Part shown: positions 40,849 through 53,167 of the stretch, in pieces
How positions within the stretch are numbered: the first letter of the stretch is position 1
Layout of the letters: each line of letters starts with the position of its first letter
Assembly (NCBI GenBank): GCA_963825135.1
Contig: CAWGRW010000009.1
Span: forward strand, 321,008 to 385,007
Source: an uncultured bacterium
GTDB lineage: Bacteria; Desulfobacterota_D; UBA1144; Nemesobacterales; UBA2774
Length of the DNA stretch: 64,000 nucleotides
Reading direction: 5' to 3'
Position numbers and translations under genes: made by a program
The notes under the pieces: generated by a model
The model's database searches: none
Seen by the model: only the letters and a program-made list of their open reading frames with translations
Told to the model about the DNA's origin: nothing

Positions 40849-41770
40849 ATGAGTAATAAAGACCTGATCAAGAGGGCGCGTAAATTCGCTGCGCCGTTCC
40901 GCATCACGAAAGGCGGCAAGTTCCGCCTGAAACACATAGATCCCGGCGACACGCTGCATCTCCAGTCAGAGGACAAGCCCCGCGCCAGGGAAGTGCTCGC
41001 CATGGGAGTCGAGCTGCTCTCCGAGCTTCAGGATATGCTCTACGCCCAGGACCGCTGGTCTCTGCTGATCATCCTGCAGGCAATGGACGCCGCGGGAAAG
41101 GACGGCACCATAAAGCACATCATGTCCGGGGTGAATCCGCAGGGCTGTCAGGTCCATTCCTTCAAGTCGCCTTCGGAGGAAGAGCTCGACCACGACTACC
41201 TGTGGCGCTGCATGAAGGCTCTGCCGAACAAAGGCGAAATCGGCATATTCAACCGTTCCTATTACGAGGAAACGCTCGTGGTGAGGGTCCATAAGGAATA
41301 TCTCGCCAACGAGAAGCTCCCGCCCGAGCTCGTTACACGCAGCATCTGGAAGGAGCGATTCCAGGATATACGCAGCTTCGAGCGTTACCTTACGCGGAAC
41401 GGGGTGGTAATCCGAAAGTTCTACCTGCACGTTTCAAAGGAGGAGCAGGAGACGCCGTTTCATGGAGCGGATCGACAACCCGGAGAAGAACTGGAAGTTC
41501 TCCTCCAGTGACGTGAAAGAGCGTCAGTACTGGGACGATTACATGGAAGCCTTCGAAGACATGATCCGGAACACCGCCACAAAGGAAGCGCCGTGGTATG
41601 TCGTCCCCGCGGACAACAAATGGTTCACTCGTCTTGTGGTCGCGGCGGCTGTAATCGATGCCCTTGCATCTCTAAACCTGCATTATCCGAAGGTGGACGA
41701 GAAAAAACTAGAAGAACTCGCGGTTGCGAAAAATCTATTAGATGGGAGAAGCGGAAATGGTAACCGATGA
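40849..41770 (+). CDS. ppk2: Polyphosphate kinase 2 (PPK2 family), split by apparent 1-nt frameshift near 41445-41470
   Basis: Walker A MDAAGKDGTI, Walker B/lid; ORF 41462..41770 continues the PPK2 C-terminus (RFMERIDNPEKNWKFS...WYVVPADNKW) after wrong-frame tail of ORF1. Confidence 0.75.
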
Positions 41771-43497: not shown

Positions 43498-43641
43498 TAG
43501 TCGAAAAAGAAGATTAAATCGAGCGGATAAATGACGGACGGCGATTTTCATTTCCCTGCCAGCATCTTCCCGAGCCGGCGACTATCCCGTTGTGCCCCGC
43601 CCCGATGATAACGGCGTCATAGGCCATTTCAAGTCCGTCCG

Positions 43642-43941: not shown

Positions 43942-45603
43942 TCATGATCTGTTCATGTACTCGTGTATGAATTTTATAGCCATGGACCCTTCACCGACCG
44001 CAGAAGCGACGCGGTTCATAGCGCCCGACCTTACGTCTCCGGCCGCGAATATACCGGGGATGCTCGACTCCAAGAGATAAGGAGTGCGCTCAAGCTTCCA
44101 GATCGACTTAAAATTCTCGTAACTAAGAAGGTCCCTGCCTGTCTCTATATACCCTTTTTCATTCTTTATAAGGTCGAGCTTTATCCAGTCCGTGAAAGGG
44201 CGCATACCTATGAATATGAACAATGACTGAGTCTCTACCGTTCTTCTCTCGCCGGTATCCAGATCCTCGATCACCATGCCTTCAAGTCGTCCGTCCCCCA
44301 TTACTTCCGCTACCCGTGTTTTGCCCAGTACAAAAATATTTTCTGTACGCGATATCTGCTCTACTAGATATTGGGACATCGAAGAGCCGAGAGAGTCGCC
44401 TCTAATGATAATGGACACCCTCTTTGCGAATTTCGATAAGTACATTGCAGACTGACCCGCCGAATTCCCGCCGCCTGCTATATATACGTCTCTACCCTTG
44501 CAGGCATGGGCTTCCGTCCTGGAGGACCCGTAATAAATGCCTGACCCGGTAAAGTCATTTACGCGCTCGGCATCCAATCGTCTGTAATCGACGCCGGACG
44601 CGATTATCAGACTGAGCGCGTTTACGTCCTTTCCGTCCGAGAGCTTAAGGATCTTATACATGTCTTTAAGCTGTATATCGACGACTTCCTGGGGCGTAAG
44701 AAATTCGGCTCCCAGTCTTGTAGCCTGCGTAATAGCACGCCGCGTGAGCTCGGCTCCGCTGAGGCCGCTCGGAAACCCGAGATAATTTTCTATCATCGAG
44801 CTCGTACCCGCCTGTCCGCCCGGGGCTCTCTTCTCGACGAGGAGCGTCTTCAGGCCCTCGGACGCCCCGTACACCGCCGCCGCGAGCCCCGCGGGCCCTG
44901 CTCCGATTATTACGACGTCGTAGATTTCCTGGGAAGCCTCCGATTTCAGACCCAACTTTCGCGCGAGGGACGTGAAATCGGGATTCGTCAGATACGAGCC
45001 GTCTTCGAAAAAAGCCGCGGGTAAGTCTTTATTTTCGATCCCTGAAACACCGATCAGCTCCCTGGCTTTATCGTGCAGCTCTACGTCAAGCCAGAGATAC
45101 GGGATCAGGTTGCCCGCCAGATACTCCTTTATCGCGTGCGACTGGGGCGACCATTGATAACCGACTAATCTTATCCCGTCAAAGTCAGGCTTGTAAGACG
45201 CATGCCATTCATCCAGGAGGTCGTCCAAAACCGGGTAGAGCTTCTCCTGAGGGGGGTCCCAGGGCTTCATCAGATAGTAGTCGAGCTGAACTTCGTTTAT
45301 CGCCTTTATCGCGGAGTCGGTGTCGGAATAGGCCGTAAGCAGCACCCTTTTCGCCTCCGGGTAAATGTCTTTCGCCCGGACCAGGAAATCTACCCCCGAG
45401 ATTCCGGGCATCCTCTGGTCGGAGACGAAAAGCGCGACCACCTCGTTTTTAAGCTTGAGCTTAGTCAGGCTTTCGAGGCTCTCTTCACCGGATTGAGCGG
45501 TTATGACCCTATACTCTTTTCCATAATACTTTCTAAGGTCCCTCTCGATAGCCCTGATAACGGCGTTGTCGTCATCGATTGCGAATATCATGGGTTTCTT
45601 CAT
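43942..45603 (-). CDS. Response-regulator receiver domain fused to thioredoxin-like domain and thioredoxin-reductase-like FAD/NAD(P) oxidoreductase
   Basis: REC (IFAIDDD...VSDQRMPGISG...K), Trx-like (GIRLVGYQWSPQSH), TrxR-like (YDVVIIGAGPAGLAAA, GGGNSAG, GIFAAGDV); start ATG 45603 with GAGGAAG RBS. Confidence 0.8.
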   Translation of the reverse strand: MKKPMIFAIDDDNAVIRAIERDLRKYYGKEYRVITAQSGEESLESLTKLKLKNEVVALFVSDQRMPGISGVDFLVRAKDIYPEAKRVLLTAYSDTDSAIKAINEVQLDYYLMKPWDPPQEKLYPVLDDLLDEWHASYKPDFDGIRLVGYQWSPQSHAIKEYLAGNLIPYLWLDVELHDKARELIGVSGIENKDLPAAFFEDGSYLTNPDFTSLARKLGLKSEASQEIYDVVIIGAGPAGLAAAVYGASEGLKTLLVEKRAPGGQAGTSSMIENYLGFPSGLSGAELTRRAITQATRLGAEFLTPQEVVDIQLKDMYKILKLSDGKDVNALSLIIASGVDYRRLDAERVNDFTGSGIYYGSSRTEAHACKGRDVYIAGGGNSAGQSAMYLSKFAKRVSIIIRGDSLGSSMSQYLVEQISRTENIFVLGKTRVAEVMGDGRLEGMVIEDLDTGERRTVETQSLFIFIGMRPFTDWIKLDLIKNEKGYIETGRDLLSYENFKSIWKLERTPYLLESSIPGIFAAGDVRSGAMNRVASAVGEGSMAIKFIHEYMNRS

Positions 45604-45641
45604 TTTCCGTGCTTCCTCATAGCCGTCTTTCGGGCGCGGGC

Positions 45642-47042
45642 TTATAAATCCACGGGCAGGCAAATGGAAAATTTCGTAAAACCCGGCCTGGATTCAAAGC
45701 CAATAGTCCCCTTATGCTGATTTACGATAATACGATATGTTATCTCGAGCCCCAGCCCCGAACCCTCGCCGGGCGCCTTGGTAGTAAAAAAAGGATCAAA
45801 TATTTTATCCTGTATTTCCTGCGGGATCCCGTTGCCGTTATCGATAATTTCCACGTTCACCGTATCGGACCCGTTGCCGTTCATTCCCGTCCTTATCGTG
45901 ATCATCCCCTTCTCGGGAACTGCGTCGATCGCGTTGTCGATCATATTAGTCCATACCTGATTGAGCTCGCCGCCGTATGCGGATATCGCGGGAATTTTGT
46001 AGTCGAATTCTTTTTTCAGGGTTACGTTCTTTTTTTTAAGTTTGTGGTTCAGGATGATTATAGTATTTTCTATGCCTTCATGCAGATCGATCTTTCTTTT
46101 CTCATGCGCTTTGTCCATATAAGCGTAAGATTTCATTGCCGATACGAGCTCCGAAATCCTGGACGTGCTTTCGACGAGCTCCCTCACGAGCTTCCTCATT
46201 TCAACGTCCCTCGGGAGCCAATTCAAAAAATTCGTGACCTGGTCCGGTTTTAATTTCTCTGAAAAATCACTGAGTATTTTCTTGGTAAATCCGACGGAGA
46301 CAAGTGCCGATGCAAGCTCCCACGGCTCTCCGACGCCCTGCTCTTCCATCCAGCCTGTCAATTCATCTTCAAGCTCGTTTCGCTCTACCGCGTCGAGCTC
46401 CACACCGTCCACGTCTATGACATCTTCAATCGGCTGAAACGGATAACCGCTCTTATCGACTTCGTCTTTGAACATGTAGTATTTCAGTATCTCGGAGGAG
46501 AAGATGTCGAATTCGTATACAGTATTCGCCAGATTCTCCGCCGTCCTCTTTGAGGCCGATGCCGGGTTATTCAATTCATGGGCGAGGCCGGCCGCCATCG
46601 TTCCGAGCGAGGCCAGCTTTTCCCTTTGAAACGAGAGGTGCGTTAATTCAAACATCCTGCTCGACATATTGGACAATATTTTTCCTCTCACCGTCGAGCA
46701 GTTACCCAGCATGTACCAGAAATCATTCTCGTCCACGCTGAATATTCTCATATCCGTAACAGCTATCCCGTTTGCCATATGCGTCATTCCCGAGAGCAGA
46801 GGCACCTCGCCGCCGGACATCCCTTTTGTGAACCGGCCGATCTGGAGCTTTTCTCCCTTGATTATCCTGTAAATTTCGAGTGTGCCCTCGAGAAAGATAT
46901 AAAAACGCCTGGCGTGATCCCCCTCGCAAAAAAGATGTTCGCCTTTTTTCAATTCCACAATTACGCCCTTTACGTCCTCGTCCAACTCTTCGTCGGTAAT
47001 TTCCGAGAACAGGTCCATATCCTTCAATTCTCTTATAAACAT
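45642..47042 (-). CDS. Sensor histidine kinase with N-terminal cyclic-nucleotide-binding (cNMP/CAP-like) domain
   Basis: 466 aa; cNMP-binding fold (FCEGDHARRFYIFLEGTLEIYR), H-box LAHELNNPAS, HATPase N/G boxes (DNGNGIP, GSGLGLEI); 3-prime end overlaps REC-TrxR gene start. Confidence 0.8.
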   Translation of the reverse strand: MFIRELKDMDLFSEITDEELDEDVKGVIVELKKGEHLFCEGDHARRFYIFLEGTLEIYRIIKGEKLQIGRFTKGMSGGEVPLLSGMTHMANGIAVTDMRIFSVDENDFWYMLGNCSTVRGKILSNMSSRMFELTHLSFQREKLASLGTMAAGLAHELNNPASASKRTAENLANTVYEFDIFSSEILKYYMFKDEVDKSGYPFQPIEDVIDVDGVELDAVERNELEDELTGWMEEQGVGEPWELASALVSVGFTKKILSDFSEKLKPDQVTNFLNWLPRDVEMRKLVRELVESTSRISELVSAMKSYAYMDKAHEKRKIDLHEGIENTIIILNHKLKKKNVTLKKEFDYKIPAISAYGGELNQVWTNMIDNAIDAVPEKGMITIRTGMNGNGSDTVNVEIIDNGNGIPQEIQDKIFDPFFTTKAPGEGSGLGLEITYRIIVNQHKGTIGFESRPGFTKFSICLPVDL

Positions 47043-47249: not shown

Positions 47250-47323
47250 GTCCCCGTAGCTCAGAAGGATAGAGCGCAGGATTCCTAATCCTGAGGCCGG
47301 AGGTTCGAATCCTCTCGGGGACG
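47250..47323 (+). tRNA. tRNA-Arg (anticodon CCT)
   Basis: 74-nt cloverleaf: acceptor GTCCCCG/CGGGGAC, D-arm GCTC..GAGC, anticodon arm CAGGA-TTCCTAA-TCCTG, T-arm GGAGG-TTCGAAT-CCTCT; CCA not encoded. Confidence 0.9.
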
Positions 47324-48233
47324 CAACCATACAGATCTTCAATCGGTTCTTGCGCCGGAAGCTGGACGCATATCAGTCGGAGAATAGACATTGTTGCAAT
47401 TAACCTATGGCGTCCGATTCCTCCTATTCGTCGAAATCGTTCTCTCGGGGACGCAAAACTTTCCCTAAGCATAGTGGCTCTATTGCATTCTTCCAAAGGC
47501 GTCCGGTTCTTGCGCATCGCTCAGAAACCGTTCTCTCGGGGACGCAATAACTCAGTCCGGAGAATCAGTAACATTGTTGCAATTAACCTATGGCGTCCGA
47601 TTCCTCCTATTCGTCGAAATCGTTCTCTCGGGGACGCATAACTCAGTCCGGAGAAAGAAGTGAATAACATGGCGTCCGATTTCCTATCTCTGTACCATTC
47701 AGTCCGGTTAACATGGCAAAGTCGACTAGTCGAAACGTCCGGGACGCATAACTCAGTCCGGAGAATAGAACATTGTTGCAATTAACCTATGGCGTCCGAT
47801 TCCTCCATTCGTCGAAATCGTTCTCGGGGACGCATAACTCAGTCGGAATAGAACAGCTGGATCTATTCGTCGAAATCGGGGACGCATAACAGTCCGGAGA
47901 ATAGTAACATTGTTGCAATTAACCTATGGCGTCCGATTCCTCCTATTCGTCGAAATCGTTCTCTCGGGGACGCATAACTCAGTCCGAAGAATAGTAACAT
48001 TGTTGCAATCAACCTAAGGCGTCCAATTGCTCACTTGTTCGCAATTGTTTCTCGGGGACGCAGCAATTTACCAAAGTACAGTGACCATGTTGCATTCTTT
48101 CAAAGGCGTCCAATTTAGTTTGGTTTCAGTAGATCATCCCGAGAACATTGGCATTGTTGCAATTAGCATAGGGCGACCGGTTTCTCACTTGCTCGAAACC
48201 GTTACTTGTTCGCAATTGTTTCTCGGGGACGCA
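47324..48233 (+). repeat. ~910-nt tandem array of ~10 units (52-171 nt, modal 85-92) directly abutting tRNA-Arg; every unit ends in (C)TCGGGGACGCA (copy of the tRNA 3-prime end) and contains a tRNA-3-prime-half-like remnant with a 7-bp hairpin
   Basis: GGGGACGCA at 47317, 47447, 47538, 47630, (47741), 47826, 47878, 47966, 48054, 48225; unit consensus TAACTCAGTCCGGAGAATAGTAACATTGTTGCAATTAACCTATGGCGTCCGATTCCTCCTATTCGTCGAAATCGTTCTCTCGGGGACGCA. Confidence 0.85.
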
Positions 48234-48494: not shown

Positions 48495-50274
48495 ATGATG
48501 AAATCCGTTCTACCCATTCTGTTGATACTTCTGTTTGCACTTTCCTGCGACTCCTCAGGTCCCGGAAACTCGGCGAACGTTTTCGGAGACAATGTGCCCG
48601 ATCCGGATGCAGTCGCCGAGGGCCCTGTCGAGAGCGACGTAGTCCTGGACATCGTACTCGGGCTCGCGCGCTCTCAGGATAGTCTCGCCGAGAGAGTCGA
48701 TGAGCTCCACGATCCGGGCTCCCCTCATTATCACGATTTCAGGAGCGTTCCGGAGATCGCCGAGGAGTTCGGGGCCGACGATTCGGCAATAAAGACAGTG
48801 CAGGAATACCTGGACGGGCTTGGCATTTCCTTGACCGCCGATGCCACAAAGGGATTTCTTCACGGCCGGGCGACGGCTGCGCAGCTGGATCAGCTTTTCG
48901 ACACGGAGCTTTTTTATTACAAGATAGACGAAGGCACTTTTATTGCGCCCTCGATAGCGCCTTCGCTCCCCGCGGCGCTTAACGGACTTGTGACGGAGGT
49001 TCTGGGTTTAAGCACCGAGCCTTCTCTCTGGGAAATCTCCCCATCCGACAGATTCCGAGACCGCTCTCGGCCCATCCGTTGCAATCGACACGCCGGGCTC
49101 CCCGACAGTCACGGGGACCCGCGAGGGGTGCGCCGACGCCCTCAAGCAAAAAGGCTTCACCCCGAACCAGTTTCGAACGGCTTACGGGATCGATGACCTT
49201 CACGAGCTCGGTTTCGAAGGGCAGGGCATCACAATGGCCCTCGTCGAGGGAACCAGTTTCGAGCAATCGAATATCGATAAGTTCACATCCTGTTTCGGAA
49301 TTTCCAATCCCGTCGTTCCGACGGTCGTCCAGCTGGGAAGCGACGAGCTCAAACCCGACGGAGAACCGTTTCTCGATATTGAAACAGCTCTAATGATCGC
49401 CCCCAAGCTCTCGGGGCTTTACGTTTTTCAAGAGAAACTCAATTCCCTGGCCGACTGGATCACGCTCTTCTCCGCGCCGCTCAACACCAAGCACACGGCG
49501 GGGGTTCCCGTGCAGATAATGTCGGGGAGTCTCGGAAACTGCGAGGTCAAATGGGGGTTTGCGGCAATTAGTACGCTGGAATTCGTATTCATGAACGCGG
49601 CAGCTTCAGGGGTGCACGTGTTTATCTCCGCGGGAGACAGCGGCTCGTCCACATGTTTCCACCACGATAAAAAGACCAAGACCAAGTCCGCCGAGTATCC
49701 CGCGTCGTCGCAATACGTCACAGGCGTCGGCGGGACTAACCTTGCGCTCAATGAGGACAACACGATCAAGGGAGAGGGCGTATGGAACGACCAGGATTTC
49801 CCCGCTCCCTACAACAAAAAGTTTGGAGCCGGCGGCGGCGGCAAAAGCATGTTCCTCTCGAGACCTCTCTGGCAGAAGGGAACGAAAATAAAGGGCTTCA
49901 GGAGGACGACGCCCGACGTGGCATTCTTCGCCGATCCTTTTCCGGGCTACGTCATAAACGACTCGCTGAAAGGCTGGTTCGATAACGGGGGCACGAGCGC
50001 CGCGACGCCGTTTTTCGCCGCGTCCATGGCCCTCGTGCTCCAGGCCGCGAAGGAAAACGACGTAACCCTCGACCTCACTTACGAGCTAATCTACAAGCTC
50101 GCGAACAGCGACGCCTACGACGGGGTTTTTCAGGACGTGGTCATAGGGAATAACGACCTCTTCGACGTCGGCTGCTGCACTGCGGGACCGCGTTACGATA
50201 TGGCAAGCGGGTGGGGATCGCTCAACATCAATTCCCTGGCCGAAGTCTTGATCCCGGGGTTGGGGAACCGATAG
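48495..50274 (+). CDS. S53-family (sedolisin/kumamolisin-like) serine peptidase with pro-domain, split by apparent frameshift near 49030-49060
   Basis: ORF 48495..49196: signal/lipobox + pro-kumamolisin activation domain; ORF 49234..50274: catalytic domain with SGDSGSS and GGTSAATPFFAA (Ser nucleophile); frame of ORF2 stays open upstream to ~49020. Confidence 0.75.
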
Positions 50275-50296: not shown

Positions 50297-53167
50297 CTAA
50301 GACGCATCAAGCAATTCCCGAACCTTTCGAAGAAAGGTCCGGGGCGTGAAAGGCTTCCCGAGGTATCCGAAACCCCGCTCCTGTTCTCCGGATTGAAAAA
50401 TGGACTCCCTCGTGTAACCGGATATATACAGCACCTTCATCTCAGGATGGATATCCAGGAGTTCTTTCACAAGCTCCGGACCGTTCATGCCGGGCATTAC
50501 CACGTCGGTTACCAGCAGATGAATCGGATCGGCGTACTTGTCGCAGATTTGAAGCGCTTCGATACAGTCCCGCGATTCCATTGCCTTATAACCGCTGTCC
50601 TTCAGCACCATGCTGAGAATATTCCGGACCGTGCCTTCATCTTCGACAAGGAGCACGGTCTCGCTGCCTCCCAGCGGTTTCTCCGCTGCAGGCTCTTCTT
50701 TCCCGGCGGGTTCGGCGCCCGAATCCGCTCGCGGCAGGTATATCCTGAACGTCGAGCCCTTGCCGACCTCGCTCATGACCGTAATATGTCCCTTGCTCTG
50801 ACTCACGATCCCGAAAGTGGTAGCCAGCCCCAGCCCCGTGCCCTGGCCTATGTCCTTGGTCGTGAAGAAGGGCTCGAAGATGCGGGATATGGTCGGCTCA
50901 TCCATCCCGCGCCCGGTGTCGCTGGCGCTTATAACGGCATACTCGCCCGGTTTAACCTCATCGCGCCGATCCGTGTTATTCTCGTCCAGATAGACGTTCG
51001 TCGTGCTTAGAGTAAGCCTGCCCCCCTCCGGCATCGCGTCTCTGGCATTAATAAGGAGGTTCATGATAGCCTGCTCGAGCTGTCCCCTGTCGGCTTTTAC
51101 ATGCCAGAGCTCCGGACGCAGGTCGGTTATGAACTCTATATTCGCCGGAAGCAGTCTCCCGAACATCTTCCCCAGGTCGGAAATTACATGGTTCAGGTTC
51201 AGAACCGTTAATTGGAAGACCTGTCTGCGTCCGAGGGCCAGGAGCCGATTGGTCAGCGCAGCGGCGCGTTCGCCTGCCTTTTGTATCTCCATGATGTTCG
51301 CCCGGAGCCCGTCGTCGATGCTCTCCTGCTCCAGTACGAGGTCGCTATAAGACGCTATGACCGTCAGCAGGTTGTTGAAGTCGTGTGCGACCCCGCCTGC
51401 CAGGTTCCCTATCGCCTCCATTTTCTGCACCCTGCGGAGCTGCTCCTCGAGTCTTTTCCTTTCGGTTATGTCCGTAACGAAGCCCTCGATGTAAGGAGGC
51501 CCACCGTCTTCCGGATAAATGCCTCTGCCCTTGTCCCAGACCCATTTCTCCTCTCTCGCTTTAGTAATAATCCTGTAAACCAGGTCGAACTGCTGGCGCT
51601 TTCCGAGTGCGGTCAGGGCATCCTCCCACACGCGTCCCCGGTCGTCAGGGTGTATTAGATTGGAGTACTTGACCTCCCTCGTAACAACAAATTCTTCAGG
51701 GGCGTAGCCTGTTAGCGCGGATACCCCTTCGCTGATGAAATCAAGCGTCCAGTATTTGTCGTATTTGCAGCGGTAAGAGCATCCCGGGAGGTTGCCGAGG
51801 AGCGTCGACAACATCCGCTCGTTCTCCCTGAGGGCTTCTTCGGCCTGCTTACGGTCCGTGATGTCCTCAACGACTCCCATACCGCCGATAACCGTCCCTC
51901 CGGCATCGAGCAGGGGAGAGTAGTGAAGAGACAGCCACAGCTTGACTGGAGATGTCGTAGCTTCATAAACACCTTCGTGATAGGAAGGCGTTCCTTCAGT
52001 AGCGGTTTTCATCGCATTTAAAAAACTCTTGTCCTTTAACGTATTCATATCGAGGCCGATAATCTTTTCAAGTGACGATTGCAGTATGTCGCTCAGGCGT
52101 TCATTACATTGTGTTATCCTCAGTTCCTTATCAAATATAAAAACTCCTACGGGCGACTGGTCGAAGAGGATGCGGTACCGCTCTTCCGAACGCCTGAGCG
52201 CCTCTGCCACCTGAGCCTTTTGTATCGCTCTCACCACCATTTGCGAAACGATCCCCAGCATTTTTAACTCTTCGTCGTCAAACGCGTCTTTCTTGAGAGA
52301 ATCTATCTTTATCACGCCGGTTACGCTGCCGTCGGTGCGGATCGGCATCGAGACGATGCTCTTCGTTCCCAATTTCCTCCCGGCGGGTCCGAGGACGGAA
52401 TCCAGGTCCGCGTCCTCACAGTACAATATGGGATTTCCGTCGAGAATCGCCTTCCACGTAAAGCCCTTCGGGTACGGGATCCTCCCGGCGCGCTCGATGA
52501 ACCATCCGGGATAACCCCTCTCGGCCATCATGACGGCGTCGTTACCCTCAACGAAATAAATCGAAACGAAGTCGCAGCCCTTGATGTTCTTGTTTATCAT
52601 CTCAACCGTGACTTCGAGTATGTCACCCACGCGGGCGTACTCCGATATGCTCCTGTTAATTTCGTTGATTATCGTCTCGTGGCTGCTCTTCTTCGACAGC
52701 CGCGCGATGCTCCTGTTGAGCTCATCGACCATGCGCCTGCTCTCCGTGACGTCACGGAAGCTGCACACTATTCCGACAACTTCGCCTTCGGATAACCGGG
52801 GGTTACAGTGTTGCTCGAAGACCCTCCCGTCCTTGAGCTCGATAACGTCGCTGCCGGGTTGCCCGGGGTTCTCTTCCATTTGCCTCAGTTTCTTGAGTAC
52901 CGCATCCGGGTCTTTCACGACCGAAAGGACGAAAGCGAACACGCGGTTGAAATCCCCGCCCTCCAGCTCGGACTCGGGTATCCCCCACATGTCTATCAGC
53001 TTCCTGTTAATGTAGGTTATATTTCCCGACCTTCCTCTGGCGATAATACCGTCCGCTGTCGCCTCCAGTGTCGCGTGGACGAGGGAAGGCGCTTCCTCGA
53101 GATTAGCCTTCGTCAGATCCCGAGGGTCGTCATTGAGCTGTTTTTTTGTTTTAGTTCCGTCTTTCAA
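50297..53167 (-). CDS. Hybrid sensor histidine kinase/response regulator with multiple PAS and GAF domains
   Basis: 956 aa; PAS/GAF repeats, H-box VAHDFNNLLTVI, HATPase (DTGRGM, GTGLGLA), C-terminal REC (VLLVEDE...D...VMPGMNG). Confidence 0.85.
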   Translation of the reverse strand: MKDGTKTKKQLNDDPRDLTKANLEEAPSLVHATLEATADGIIARGRSGNITYINRKLIDMWGIPESELEGGDFNRVFAFVLSVVKDPDAVLKKLRQMEENPGQPGSDVIELKDGRVFEQHCNPRLSEGEVVGIVCSFRDVTESRRMVDELNRSIARLSKKSSHETIINEINRSISEYARVGDILEVTVEMINKNIKGCDFVSIYFVEGNDAVMMAERGYPGWFIERAGRIPYPKGFTWKAILDGNPILYCEDADLDSVLGPAGRKLGTKSIVSMPIRTDGSVTGVIKIDSLKKDAFDDEELKMLGIVSQMVVRAIQKAQVAEALRRSEERYRILFDQSPVGVFIFDKELRITQCNERLSDILQSSLEKIIGLDMNTLKDKSFLNAMKTATEGTPSYHEGVYEATTSPVKLWLSLHYSPLLDAGGTVIGGMGVVEDITDRKQAEEALRENERMLSTLLGNLPGCSYRCKYDKYWTLDFISEGVSALTGYAPEEFVVTREVKYSNLIHPDDRGRVWEDALTALGKRQQFDLVYRIITKAREEKWVWDKGRGIYPEDGGPPYIEGFVTDITERKRLEEQLRRVQKMEAIGNLAGGVAHDFNNLLTVIASYSDLVLEQESIDDGLRANIMEIQKAGERAAALTNRLLALGRRQVFQLTVLNLNHVISDLGKMFGRLLPANIEFITDLRPELWHVKADRGQLEQAIMNLLINARDAMPEGGRLTLSTTNVYLDENNTDRRDEVKPGEYAVISASDTGRGMDEPTISRIFEPFFTTKDIGQGTGLGLATTFGIVSQSKGHITVMSEVGKGSTFRIYLPRADSGAEPAGKEEPAAEKPLGGSETVLLVEDEGTVRNILSMVLKDSGYKAMESRDCIEALQICDKYADPIHLLVTDVVMPGMNGPELVKELLDIHPEMKVLYISGYTRESIFQSGEQERGFGYLGKPFTPRTFLRKVRELLDAS

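Follow-up and report, generated by a model that had tools for sequence, protein, structure and literature searches.

Several response regulators have enzymatic outputs, among them CheB, PleD/WspR, RpfG and PorX; we know of no characterized response regulator whose output is a flavin oxidoreductase. Some flavoenzymes related to thioredoxin reductase (TrxR) lack its redox-active C-x-x-C (CxxC) motif and use the flavin directly, as in the TrxR-type ferredoxin/flavodoxin-NAD(P)+ reductases (FNRs) and YpdA/Bdr. Proteins combining a receiver (REC) domain with a thioredoxin reductase are named "fused response regulator/thioredoxin-disulfide reductase" at NCBI, a name borne for example by the protein of Adhaeribacter arboris P0066, and the architecture is mentioned in Galperin's response-regulator census (PMC5847659). 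Here we describe one such regulator, its partner histidine kinase and a neighboring zinc-finger protein, encoded in a 64,000-nucleotide stretch (the window) of contig CAWGRW010000009.1, from an uncultured Desulfobacterota_D bacterium.

The window regulator is of the same family as the NCBI-named proteins and shows no feature that distinguishes it from them; the locus is a typical copy of a catalogued family and not itself a discovery. Some points at the family level are modestly interesting: the dead dithiols of the output module, the degenerate cassette of the kinase sensor, the occurrence of one- and two-component versions, the linkage to a zinc-finger gene, and an insertion in the dimerization and histidine phosphotransfer (DHp) domain of the kinase.

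A putative flavoprotein output without redox-active cysteines

The minus strand of the window carries three co-directional intact open reading frames (ORFs), for the kinase (466 aa), the regulator (553 aa) and the UBP zinc finger (90 aa). Chance is not an issue, since the ORFs are long and intact with strong domain scores. The longest regulator ORF, 43942..45663 (573 aa), begins at TTG 45663, and its use as the gene is what made the kinase gene seem, in an earlier reading made from the sequence only, to overlap the start of the regulator gene. That overlap is unreal. Homologue lengths place the real start at ATG 45603, which is preceded by GAGGAAG: among the 120 homologues listed, 107 are exactly 553 aa long and all but one are 551–555 aa, and the listed homologues match from the query's first residue. 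The kinase stop (TAA, 45642-45644) is then followed by a 38-nt gap to the regulator ATG, and the gap is identical at an orthologous locus (L002, 87% identical). Residue numbers for the regulator refer to the 553-aa protein. A promoter/terminator scan at the locus gave signal no better than shuffles.

Within the 573-aa ORF, Pfam recognizes Response_reg and Pyr_redox_2, with no match in residues 140–245. The receiver scores 52 bits against a cut-off of 30.2, and D10–D12, D62, T90 and K113 are invariant in regulator alignment A1; by sequence it has the acidic pocket, phospho-acceptor Asp and conserved Thr and Lys of a receiver. The remainder resembles an enzyme. Pyr_redox_2 scores 120.7 bits, the best PDB matches by both sequence and fold are TrxRs and AhpF, and Foldseek pairs the AlphaFold2 (AF2) model of the regulator with TrxRs at probability 1.0, with full-length AhpF also at the top. 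The sequence-only reading had proposed a single gene for REC, thioredoxin-like and TrxR-like domains, with an enzyme-like flavoprotein as output and not a DNA-binding domain. Both proposals are upheld, by the Pfam domains, by AF2 and profile evidence for the middle domain, and by the one-component relatives described below. Identity to the 120 best database proteins is 64–98% over the full length; these come from Thermodesulfobacteriota, Bacteroidota, Ignavibacteriales and Balneola. Regulators of Thermodesulfobacteriota and Bacteroidota are 64–68% identical to each other and mostly of the same length. The family appears to be under strong purifying selection.

The C-A-T/V-C of TrxR falls opposite S360-S-R-T363 of the regulator, both by HMMER against Bacillus cereus TrxR (7AAW) and by MAFFT against E. 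coli TrxB. We took a census of this site in three samples: 75 REC-type proteins of species-representative genomes, 136 proteins that each represent a cluster at 50% identity, and 119 one-component relatives. A pair of cysteines was present in none of them (0/75, 0/136 and 0/119). As the alignments have it, the CxxC is wholly lost from the TrxR-like part, not cut to a single Cys. The sequence-only reading had noted an altered CxxC; loss of the pair stands, even more fully than was claimed, but the HACKG that it placed at the CxxC site is not there, SSRT is. Cys368, the cysteine of that HACKG, aligns in both comparisons with a TrxR Phe/Tyr five residues beyond the second Cys. It is conserved in the window regulator's clade, and the three samples keep it in 53/75, 44/136 and 119/119, with Y, F, L, M or V in the other proteins. 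Hence it is not a catalytic residue of the family as a whole, and we ruled it out as a universal catalytic thiol.

Other residues are held far more tightly. Near-invariant across the three aligned samples (∼330 relatives) are E364, R401, W502, R506, E512 and the Asp of the GD motif, which argues for a conserved active site and not a decaying domain. E364 sits where TrxR has its acid-base Asp, while W502 (73/75 REC-type proteins), R506 (75/75) and E512 (75/75) lie in a family-specific insertion. The FAD motifs GAGPAG, GGQAG and AAGDV and the dinucleotide motif GGGNSA are invariant, and we infer that the regulator binds flavin and NAD(P)H. The NADPH 2'-phosphate motif HRRxxxR (HRRDGFR in E. coli TrxR) reads IRGDSLG here, with R401 alone conserved. 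The regulator scores 230.2 bits with the thioredoxin reductase model TIGR01292, under its cut-off of 343.45. The name "thioredoxin reductase" commonly given to this family is almost certainly a misnomer, as the redox-active CxxC is absent from every member examined.

The middle domain proved thioredoxin-like, as had been supposed. AF2 gives residues 144–216 the topology b-a-b-a-b-b-a, and a profile of 32 diverse middle domains matches Mycobacterium tuberculosis mycoredoxin-1 (2LQO) at E=5e-9; Pfam Glutaredoxin is detected in 8 of the 32. Opposite the WCGYC of mycoredoxin-1 stands W-S-x-x-S, which reads WSPQS in the window regulator. Of the 75 REC-type proteins, 68 have Ser at position 152 and none has Cys there; 55 have Ser at position 155. 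With neither CxxC nor CxxS as an active site where helix 1 begins, the domain is, on sequence and model, best described as a thioredoxin fold without redox Cys. The whole module looks like an AhpF-type relay, a glutaredoxin (Grx)/thioredoxin-fold domain plus a TrxR, minus both dithiol centers. Two suggestions of the sequence-only reading thus lose their support: an altered, single-Cys redox mechanism (Cys368 is off the CxxC site and not family-wide) and a disulfide-reductase activity (the CxxC of the TrxR-like part is lost), the Grx-like domain in either case being without Cys.

A kinase with a CAP-like sensor and an extended DHp domain

The kinase has a CAP-like domain instead of a membrane sensor, as first read. 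Pfam cNMP_binding (PF00027) scores 55.9 bits against a cut-off of 27.5 at aa 29–112, HATPase_c is present, and the protein is soluble. An AF2 model built with an alignment of database homologues has a mean predicted confidence (pLDDT) of 82.5 and a predicted beta-barrel at residues 27–104. Homologues number ∼8000, and those listed are mostly ∼466 aa with the same domains. Invariant residues are H155, N366, D401, G403, G405, F418 and G425–G431; with the H-box His and the N, G1, F and G2 boxes, the sequence has what is expected of a HisKA-type kinase. Pfam HisKA itself gives 20.7 against a cut-off of 26.9, a partial match confined to the H-box, because ∼100 aa are inserted in the DHp loop.

This insertion is evident where the alignment to ZraS breaks, kinase residues 138–172 and 276–465 matching the contiguous ZraS segments 16–50 and 53–236. 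In the AF2 model one helix (116–190) runs from the CAP C-helix through DHp helix 1, followed by a confident small helical cap (203–261) and a long helix 2 (266–311). This ∼100-aa insertion, which caps the DHp hairpin at its tip, is conserved in every partner kinase, with W231, A244, G251 and W275 invariant. None of the histidine kinases in the PDB shares it.

Opposite R82-S83-A84 of E. coli CRP the kinase has M89-A90-N91; the Gly-Glu of the phosphate-binding cassette is present. Pfam cNMP_binding is found in 56 of the 58 full-length partner kinases scanned, and the canonical cassette G-E...R-[ST]-A is kept in 3/58, from the Chloroflexota-like loci L023, L069 and L072. The other partner kinases are of a G-x-L-P-[FY]-S-R type or of the window's G-E-[VI]-P-x-L-[ST]-G type. 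A cyclic nucleotide is an unlikely ligand, because the phosphate-binding Arg is replaced by Met and so few partner kinases keep the canonical cassette. The earlier proposal that a cyclic-nucleotide signal feeds the enzyme fares accordingly: with Met-Ala-Asn for Arg-Ser/Thr-Ala, it is unlikely.

One-component relatives

Many proteins found in an exhaustive search of 1.84 billion representatives align with residues 140–550 of the regulator and with no other part of it. At their N-termini Pfam finds cNMP_binding, SnoaL_2 or nothing, and a search seeded with one of these one-component relatives gave at least 8000 matches. In the versions fused to a CAP-like domain or free of any regulatory domain the enzyme is the only possible output, which supports the flavoprotein as the regulated output of the two-component version as well. 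This large sister family, in which cNMP_binding is fused to the Grx-like plus TrxR-like module, also lends support to the idea that a CAP-fold sensor controls the enzyme, and supports such a sensor as the ancestral or preferred controller of the flavoprotein module. The one-component cassette, G-[DE]-x-x-x-L-[TS]-G, resembles that of the window-type kinases, and 5/119 one-component relatives fit a loosened cassette pattern in which Asp is allowed for Glu.

Neighbors in the three one-component contexts inspected were heterogeneous, being either a ferredoxin-like gene or thioredoxin and peroxiredoxin genes. At one of our loci (L083, 793-3038) two paralogous one-component cNMP-TrxR-like genes lie 2.5 kb apart in one genome. 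One of the paralogues adjoins a gene for a 2Fe-2S ferredoxin-like (Fer2/Fer2_2) protein, which may hint at an electron partner.

Distribution and gene linkage

More than 8000 regulator relatives are in the database. The sequence-only reading had proposed a phyletic survey of such fusions next to cNMP-binding kinases; a pattern scan of one genome per species found the regulator in at least 578 species genomes from at least eight phyla, so it is widespread. The 80 loci retained come from Bacteroidota, Cyanobacteria, Chloroflexota, Acidobacteriota, Gemmatimonadota, Actinomycetota, Planctomycetota and Proteobacteria. We counted linkage by tblastn over 82 loci with a 5-kb limit. A related kinase core lay within that distance of the regulator in 73/82 loci, from many phyla, which supports the kinase as the cognate partner and the pairing first proposed from gene order. 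The kinase is upstream of the regulator in Bacteroidota and in the window's lineage, and downstream in most others.

The gene immediately downstream does encode a UBP-type zinc finger, as had been noted; its zf-UBP (PF02148) score is 49.7 bits against a cut-off of 22.7. The protein matches a solved structure, 2IDA (E=1e-25), deposited only as "Hypothetical protein", and zf-UBP is listed in a survey of mini-proteins (PMC2602986). A zf-UBP gene occurs within 5 kb of the regulator in 18/82 loci, at varying positions and in several phyla, far exceeding the ∼0.2% that we estimate for a single-copy gene in a 5-Mb genome. All-against-all clustering of ORFs from the 82 loci and the window region gave no recurrent neighbors besides the kinase and the zinc finger. 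Adhaeribacter and a metagenome-assembled genome of Thermodesulfobacteriota show the three genes in the same order as the window. Coordinates of the features are collected in Table 1.

Table 1. Window coordinates of the kinase, regulator and zinc-finger genes and of features within them
Feature	Position	Strand	Basis and remarks
Soluble histidine kinase, 466 aa	45642..47042	-	ORF, Pfam and AF2; CAP/cNMP-fold sensor, extended DHp, catalytic and ATP-binding (CA) domain
CAP-like beta-barrel, aa 29-112	46707..46958	-	Pfam cNMP_binding; non-canonical phosphate-binding cassette GGEVPLLSGMTHMANGIA
Phospho-accepting His155 in H-box AGLAHELNNP	46578..46580	-	Predicted; invariant in alignments A2 and A4, aligned to ZraS H-box
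DHp insertion, ∼100 aa, aa 173-275	46218..46526	-	Between DHp helix 1 and helix 2
CA domain with N, G1, F and G2 boxes	45648..45965	-	Pfam HATPase_c 81.7 bits
Response regulator, 553 aa	43942..45603	-	REC + Grx-like + TrxR-like; ATG start 45603
Receiver domain	45250..45588	-	Pfam Response_reg 52 bits; D10-D11-D12, D62, T90, K113
Receiver phospho-acceptor D62	45418..45420	-	Predicted; invariant in alignment A1
Glutaredoxin/mycoredoxin-like domain, WSPQS	44956..45174	-	AF2 topology, profile match to 2LQO
TrxR-like FAD/NAD(P)H two-domain module	43945..44922	-	Pfam Pyr_redox_2 120.7 bits
S360-S-R-T363, opposite TrxR redox-active C-x-x-C	44515..44526	-	HMMER vs 7AAW, MAFFT vs E. coli TrxB
Cys368 of "HAC"	44500..44502	-	Five residues past CxxC site
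Family-specific insertion before PGIFAAGDV	44065..44139	-	W502, R506, E512; absent from E. coli TrxB
UBP-type zinc-finger protein, stand-alone, 90 aa	43642..43914	-	Pfam zf-UBP; 27 nt downstream of regulator

Surroundings of the locus

Directly past the zinc-finger stop, at ∼43600-43630 (minus strand), the window has ATGGCCTATGACGCCGTTATCATCGGGG (MAYDAVIIG), which resembles the start (MTYDAVIIGAG...) of a DAO/amine-oxidase-like gene that follows the zinc finger at L002. In the window MAYDAVIIG does not lead into a long ORF, and the next gene is an acetate kinase gene on the opposite strand, a pattern suggestive of a deletion behind the zinc finger relative to L002.

On the other side, directly upstream of the kinase gene and in the lowest-GC stretch of the window (0.467), is a repeat array. 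It follows a tRNA-Arg(CCT) gene (47250-47324, plus strand), together with which it takes up 47250-48233, and comprises six or more degenerate direct repeats that all close with a copy of the 3' part of the tRNA (...TCTCGGGGACGCA). The repeats may be att-site remnants of tRNA-targeting mobile elements. L002 has an integrase gene and a TIR gene upstream of its kinase.

Two genes of the window appear interrupted. A polyphosphate kinase 2 (PPK2) gene (40849-41770) is split into overlapping ORFs, 40849-41511 and 41462-41770, which cover profile positions 12–161 and 155–223; this frameshift could reflect either a pseudogene or a sequencing error. A sedolisin/kumamolisin-like peptidase also seems split, into a pro-kumamolisin activation domain (48495-49196) and a subtilase-type catalytic ORF (49234-50274). 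A hybrid sensor kinase of 956 aa (50297-53167, minus strand; PAS-GAF-PAS-PAS-HisKA-HATPase-REC) lies ∼3 kb upstream of the pair and is unrelated to it.

Proposed mechanism and alternatives

We lean, if only slightly, toward reading the kinase-regulator pair as a cytoplasmic two-component system whose output is a phosphorylation-gated FAD/NAD(P)H flavoenzyme with a non-disulfide acceptor. The soluble kinase would sense a small cytosolic ligand through its CAP-fold beta-barrel, probably not cAMP or cGMP because the cyclic-phosphate-binding residues of the barrel are degenerate. One long helix would join the barrel to the unusually long DHp domain; the kinase would autophosphorylate on His155 and pass the phosphate to Asp62 of the regulator. 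The output would be a flavoenzyme module from a Grx plus TrxR (AhpF-like) relay whose dithiols have been replaced by WSPQS and SSRT. Since both dithiols are replaced while the FAD and core NAD(P)H motifs are kept, receiver phosphorylation most likely acts as an allosteric switch that activates or inactivates an NAD(P)H-dependent flavin oxidoreductase. The enzyme would be neither a thioredoxin reductase nor a disulfide reductase, and its electrons would go to an external non-disulfide acceptor. The UBP zinc-finger protein, as a recurrent neighbor, is a candidate partner or acceptor.

Several points weigh against this reading. One of the three NADPH 2'-phosphate Arg residues is left, which makes dinucleotide use uncertain. 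For the regulator, the AF2 model reaches no more than a moderate pLDDT of 69. Nearby genes offer no acceptor except perhaps the zinc finger, found within 5 kb in just 22% of loci and absent beside the one-component genes in 3/3 contexts. CAP-fold domains with atypical cassettes could bind a nucleotide nonetheless. Finally, the literature that we searched yielded no functional study of any family member.

Among the alternatives, the flavoprotein might be a pseudo-enzyme that senses redox state or NAD(P)H and thereby modulates receiver phosphorylation or a protein interaction, for example with the UBP zinc finger, that would relay the signal. Loss of both catalytic dithiols with the cofactor motifs kept would suit such a role, as would the lack of a linked substrate gene and a zinc finger that recurs in different phyla without a fixed position; proteins with several interaction surfaces are typically very highly conserved over their whole length. 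We think it rather unlikely all the same. Numerous stand-alone and CAP-fused versions have no phosphorelay, and for them a regulated enzyme is the simpler fit. The conserved polar residues E364 (in place of the acid-base Asp of TrxR), R506 and E512 resemble those of an active site, and the zinc finger is missing from most loci.

The regulator might instead resemble the TrxR-type FNRs, passing electrons under phosphorylation control to the UBP-finger protein or to a ferredoxin. It shares with them a CxxC-less TrxR fold (matches to 3LZW, 5XHU and 6GAS have E values of ∼1e-17 to 1e-21), and both kinds of acceptor have some basis in gene neighborhoods: the zinc finger is adjacent in 18/82 loci, and one one-component paralogue, at L083, adjoins the 2Fe-2S ferredoxin-like gene. 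True TrxRs are much closer to the regulator (E=2e-48) than the FNRs are, though, and the regulator stops where TrxR stops, with no C-terminal FAD-stacking extension. UBP fingers are zinc sites and not known redox centers. We regard this alternative as doubtful, and as less probable than a pseudo-enzyme.

Improbable in our judgment is the model nearest to the sequence-only reading, in which cAMP or cGMP sensed by the kinase controls a single-Cys disulfide reductase acting through Cys368, much like CoA-disulfide reductase and NADH peroxidase. Pfam does name the sensor cNMP_binding, and a few partner kinases (L023, L069, L072) have the canonical cassette, but that cassette is missing in 55/58 and its Arg is Met in the window kinase. 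Similarly, the retention of Cys368 in 53/75 REC-type and 119/119 one-component proteins has to be set against its place off the CxxC position and against the Y, F, L, M or V that about two thirds of the 50%-identity representatives have instead. The Grx-like domain, moreover, offers no Cys for an electron relay.

That the fused gene is an artefact, either REC and TrxR genes joined by a frameshift (a doubt that the sequence-only reading had itself raised) or a decaying pseudogene, has next to no chance of being right: the PPK2 and sedolisin-like peptidase genes of the window do look split, but the regulator is encoded by one ORF without a break, its length of 553 aa recurs exactly in 107 of the 120 listed homologues, and the architecture is common to more than 500 genomes of many phyla, nearly all at ∼550 aa, a spread and uniformity that refute frameshift fusion.

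A bolder extension of the preferred reading, that of a phosphorylation-gated flavoenzyme, is offered tentatively and is unlikely to hold in full: kinase, regulator and UBP finger would form a three-part signaling module, not recognized before, in which a CAP-fold metabolite sensor switches a "disarmed" Grx-TrxR flavoprotein with new chemistry. That chemistry could be, for example, regulated NAD(P)H oxidation, generation of reactive oxygen species, or delivery of electrons to the Cys/His-rich finger protein, and the CAP-fused proteins would be a one-component ancestor or derivative. If true, this would be a new class of flavin-based signaling output in hundreds of bacterial species. The architecture is already in censuses and is auto-annotated in thousands of genomes, under a family name, thioredoxin reductase, that family-wide loss of both dithiol centers contradicts; the CAP-fold sensor of the partner kinases is likewise mostly without cNMP-binding residues. 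Wiring of the same enzyme module to its sensor either directly or through a phosphorelay makes a natural experiment in one- versus two-component design. The ligand and the electron acceptor would together define a new regulated flavoenzyme activity of Bacteroidota, Cyanobacteria, Acidobacteriota, Actinomycetota and others.

Comparison with known systems

The regulator shares with TrxB (TIGR01292) the two-domain FAD/NAD(P)H fold and the GxGxxG, GGQ, GGGNxA and GD motifs. It differs in having SSRT for the CxxC, in the reduction of HRRxxxR to one Arg, in a ∼14-aa insertion relative to E. coli TrxB that carries W502/R506/E512, and in its N-terminal REC and Grx-like domains. AhpF comes closer in layout, with a thioredoxin-fold domain N-terminal to a TrxR-like module. 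Its full-length Foldseek alignments (567–597 columns) are among the top matches, and the models TIGR03140 and TIGR03143 match the regulator in part. In AhpF the N-terminal domain and the TrxR-like part each have a CxxC, whereas the regulator lacks both motifs and has a receiver.

With respect to the redox disulfide, parallels are the TrxR-type FNRs (B. subtilis YumC, 3LZW) and the bacillithiol-disulfide reductase YpdA/Bdr, which like the regulator have the TrxR fold without it. We rejected membership in the TrxR-type FNRs, since the C-terminal extension with its FAD-stacking aromatic residue is missing: residue 571 of 573 (TTG numbering) aligns to residue 315 of 332 in 3LZW. Similarity to YpdA is weak (TIGR04018, E=7e-15, 55 bits against a cut-off of 340). 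Among the CxxC-less TrxR-like flavoenzymes compared, regulatory domains are found only in the window regulator's family.

The one-component proteins, annotated as "thioredoxin reductase" or "FAD-dependent oxidoreductase", have the same output module as regulator residues 140–550, at 41–47% identity, and share with the regulator the signature YYxA..EA and W..R.P..LE[TS]. They differ in that the CAP-like sensor is fused directly, without kinase and receiver. CheB, PleD/WspR, RpfG and PorX resemble the window regulator in logic only, a receiver gating a catalytic domain; what would set the regulator apart from them is its output, a flavin oxidoreductase.

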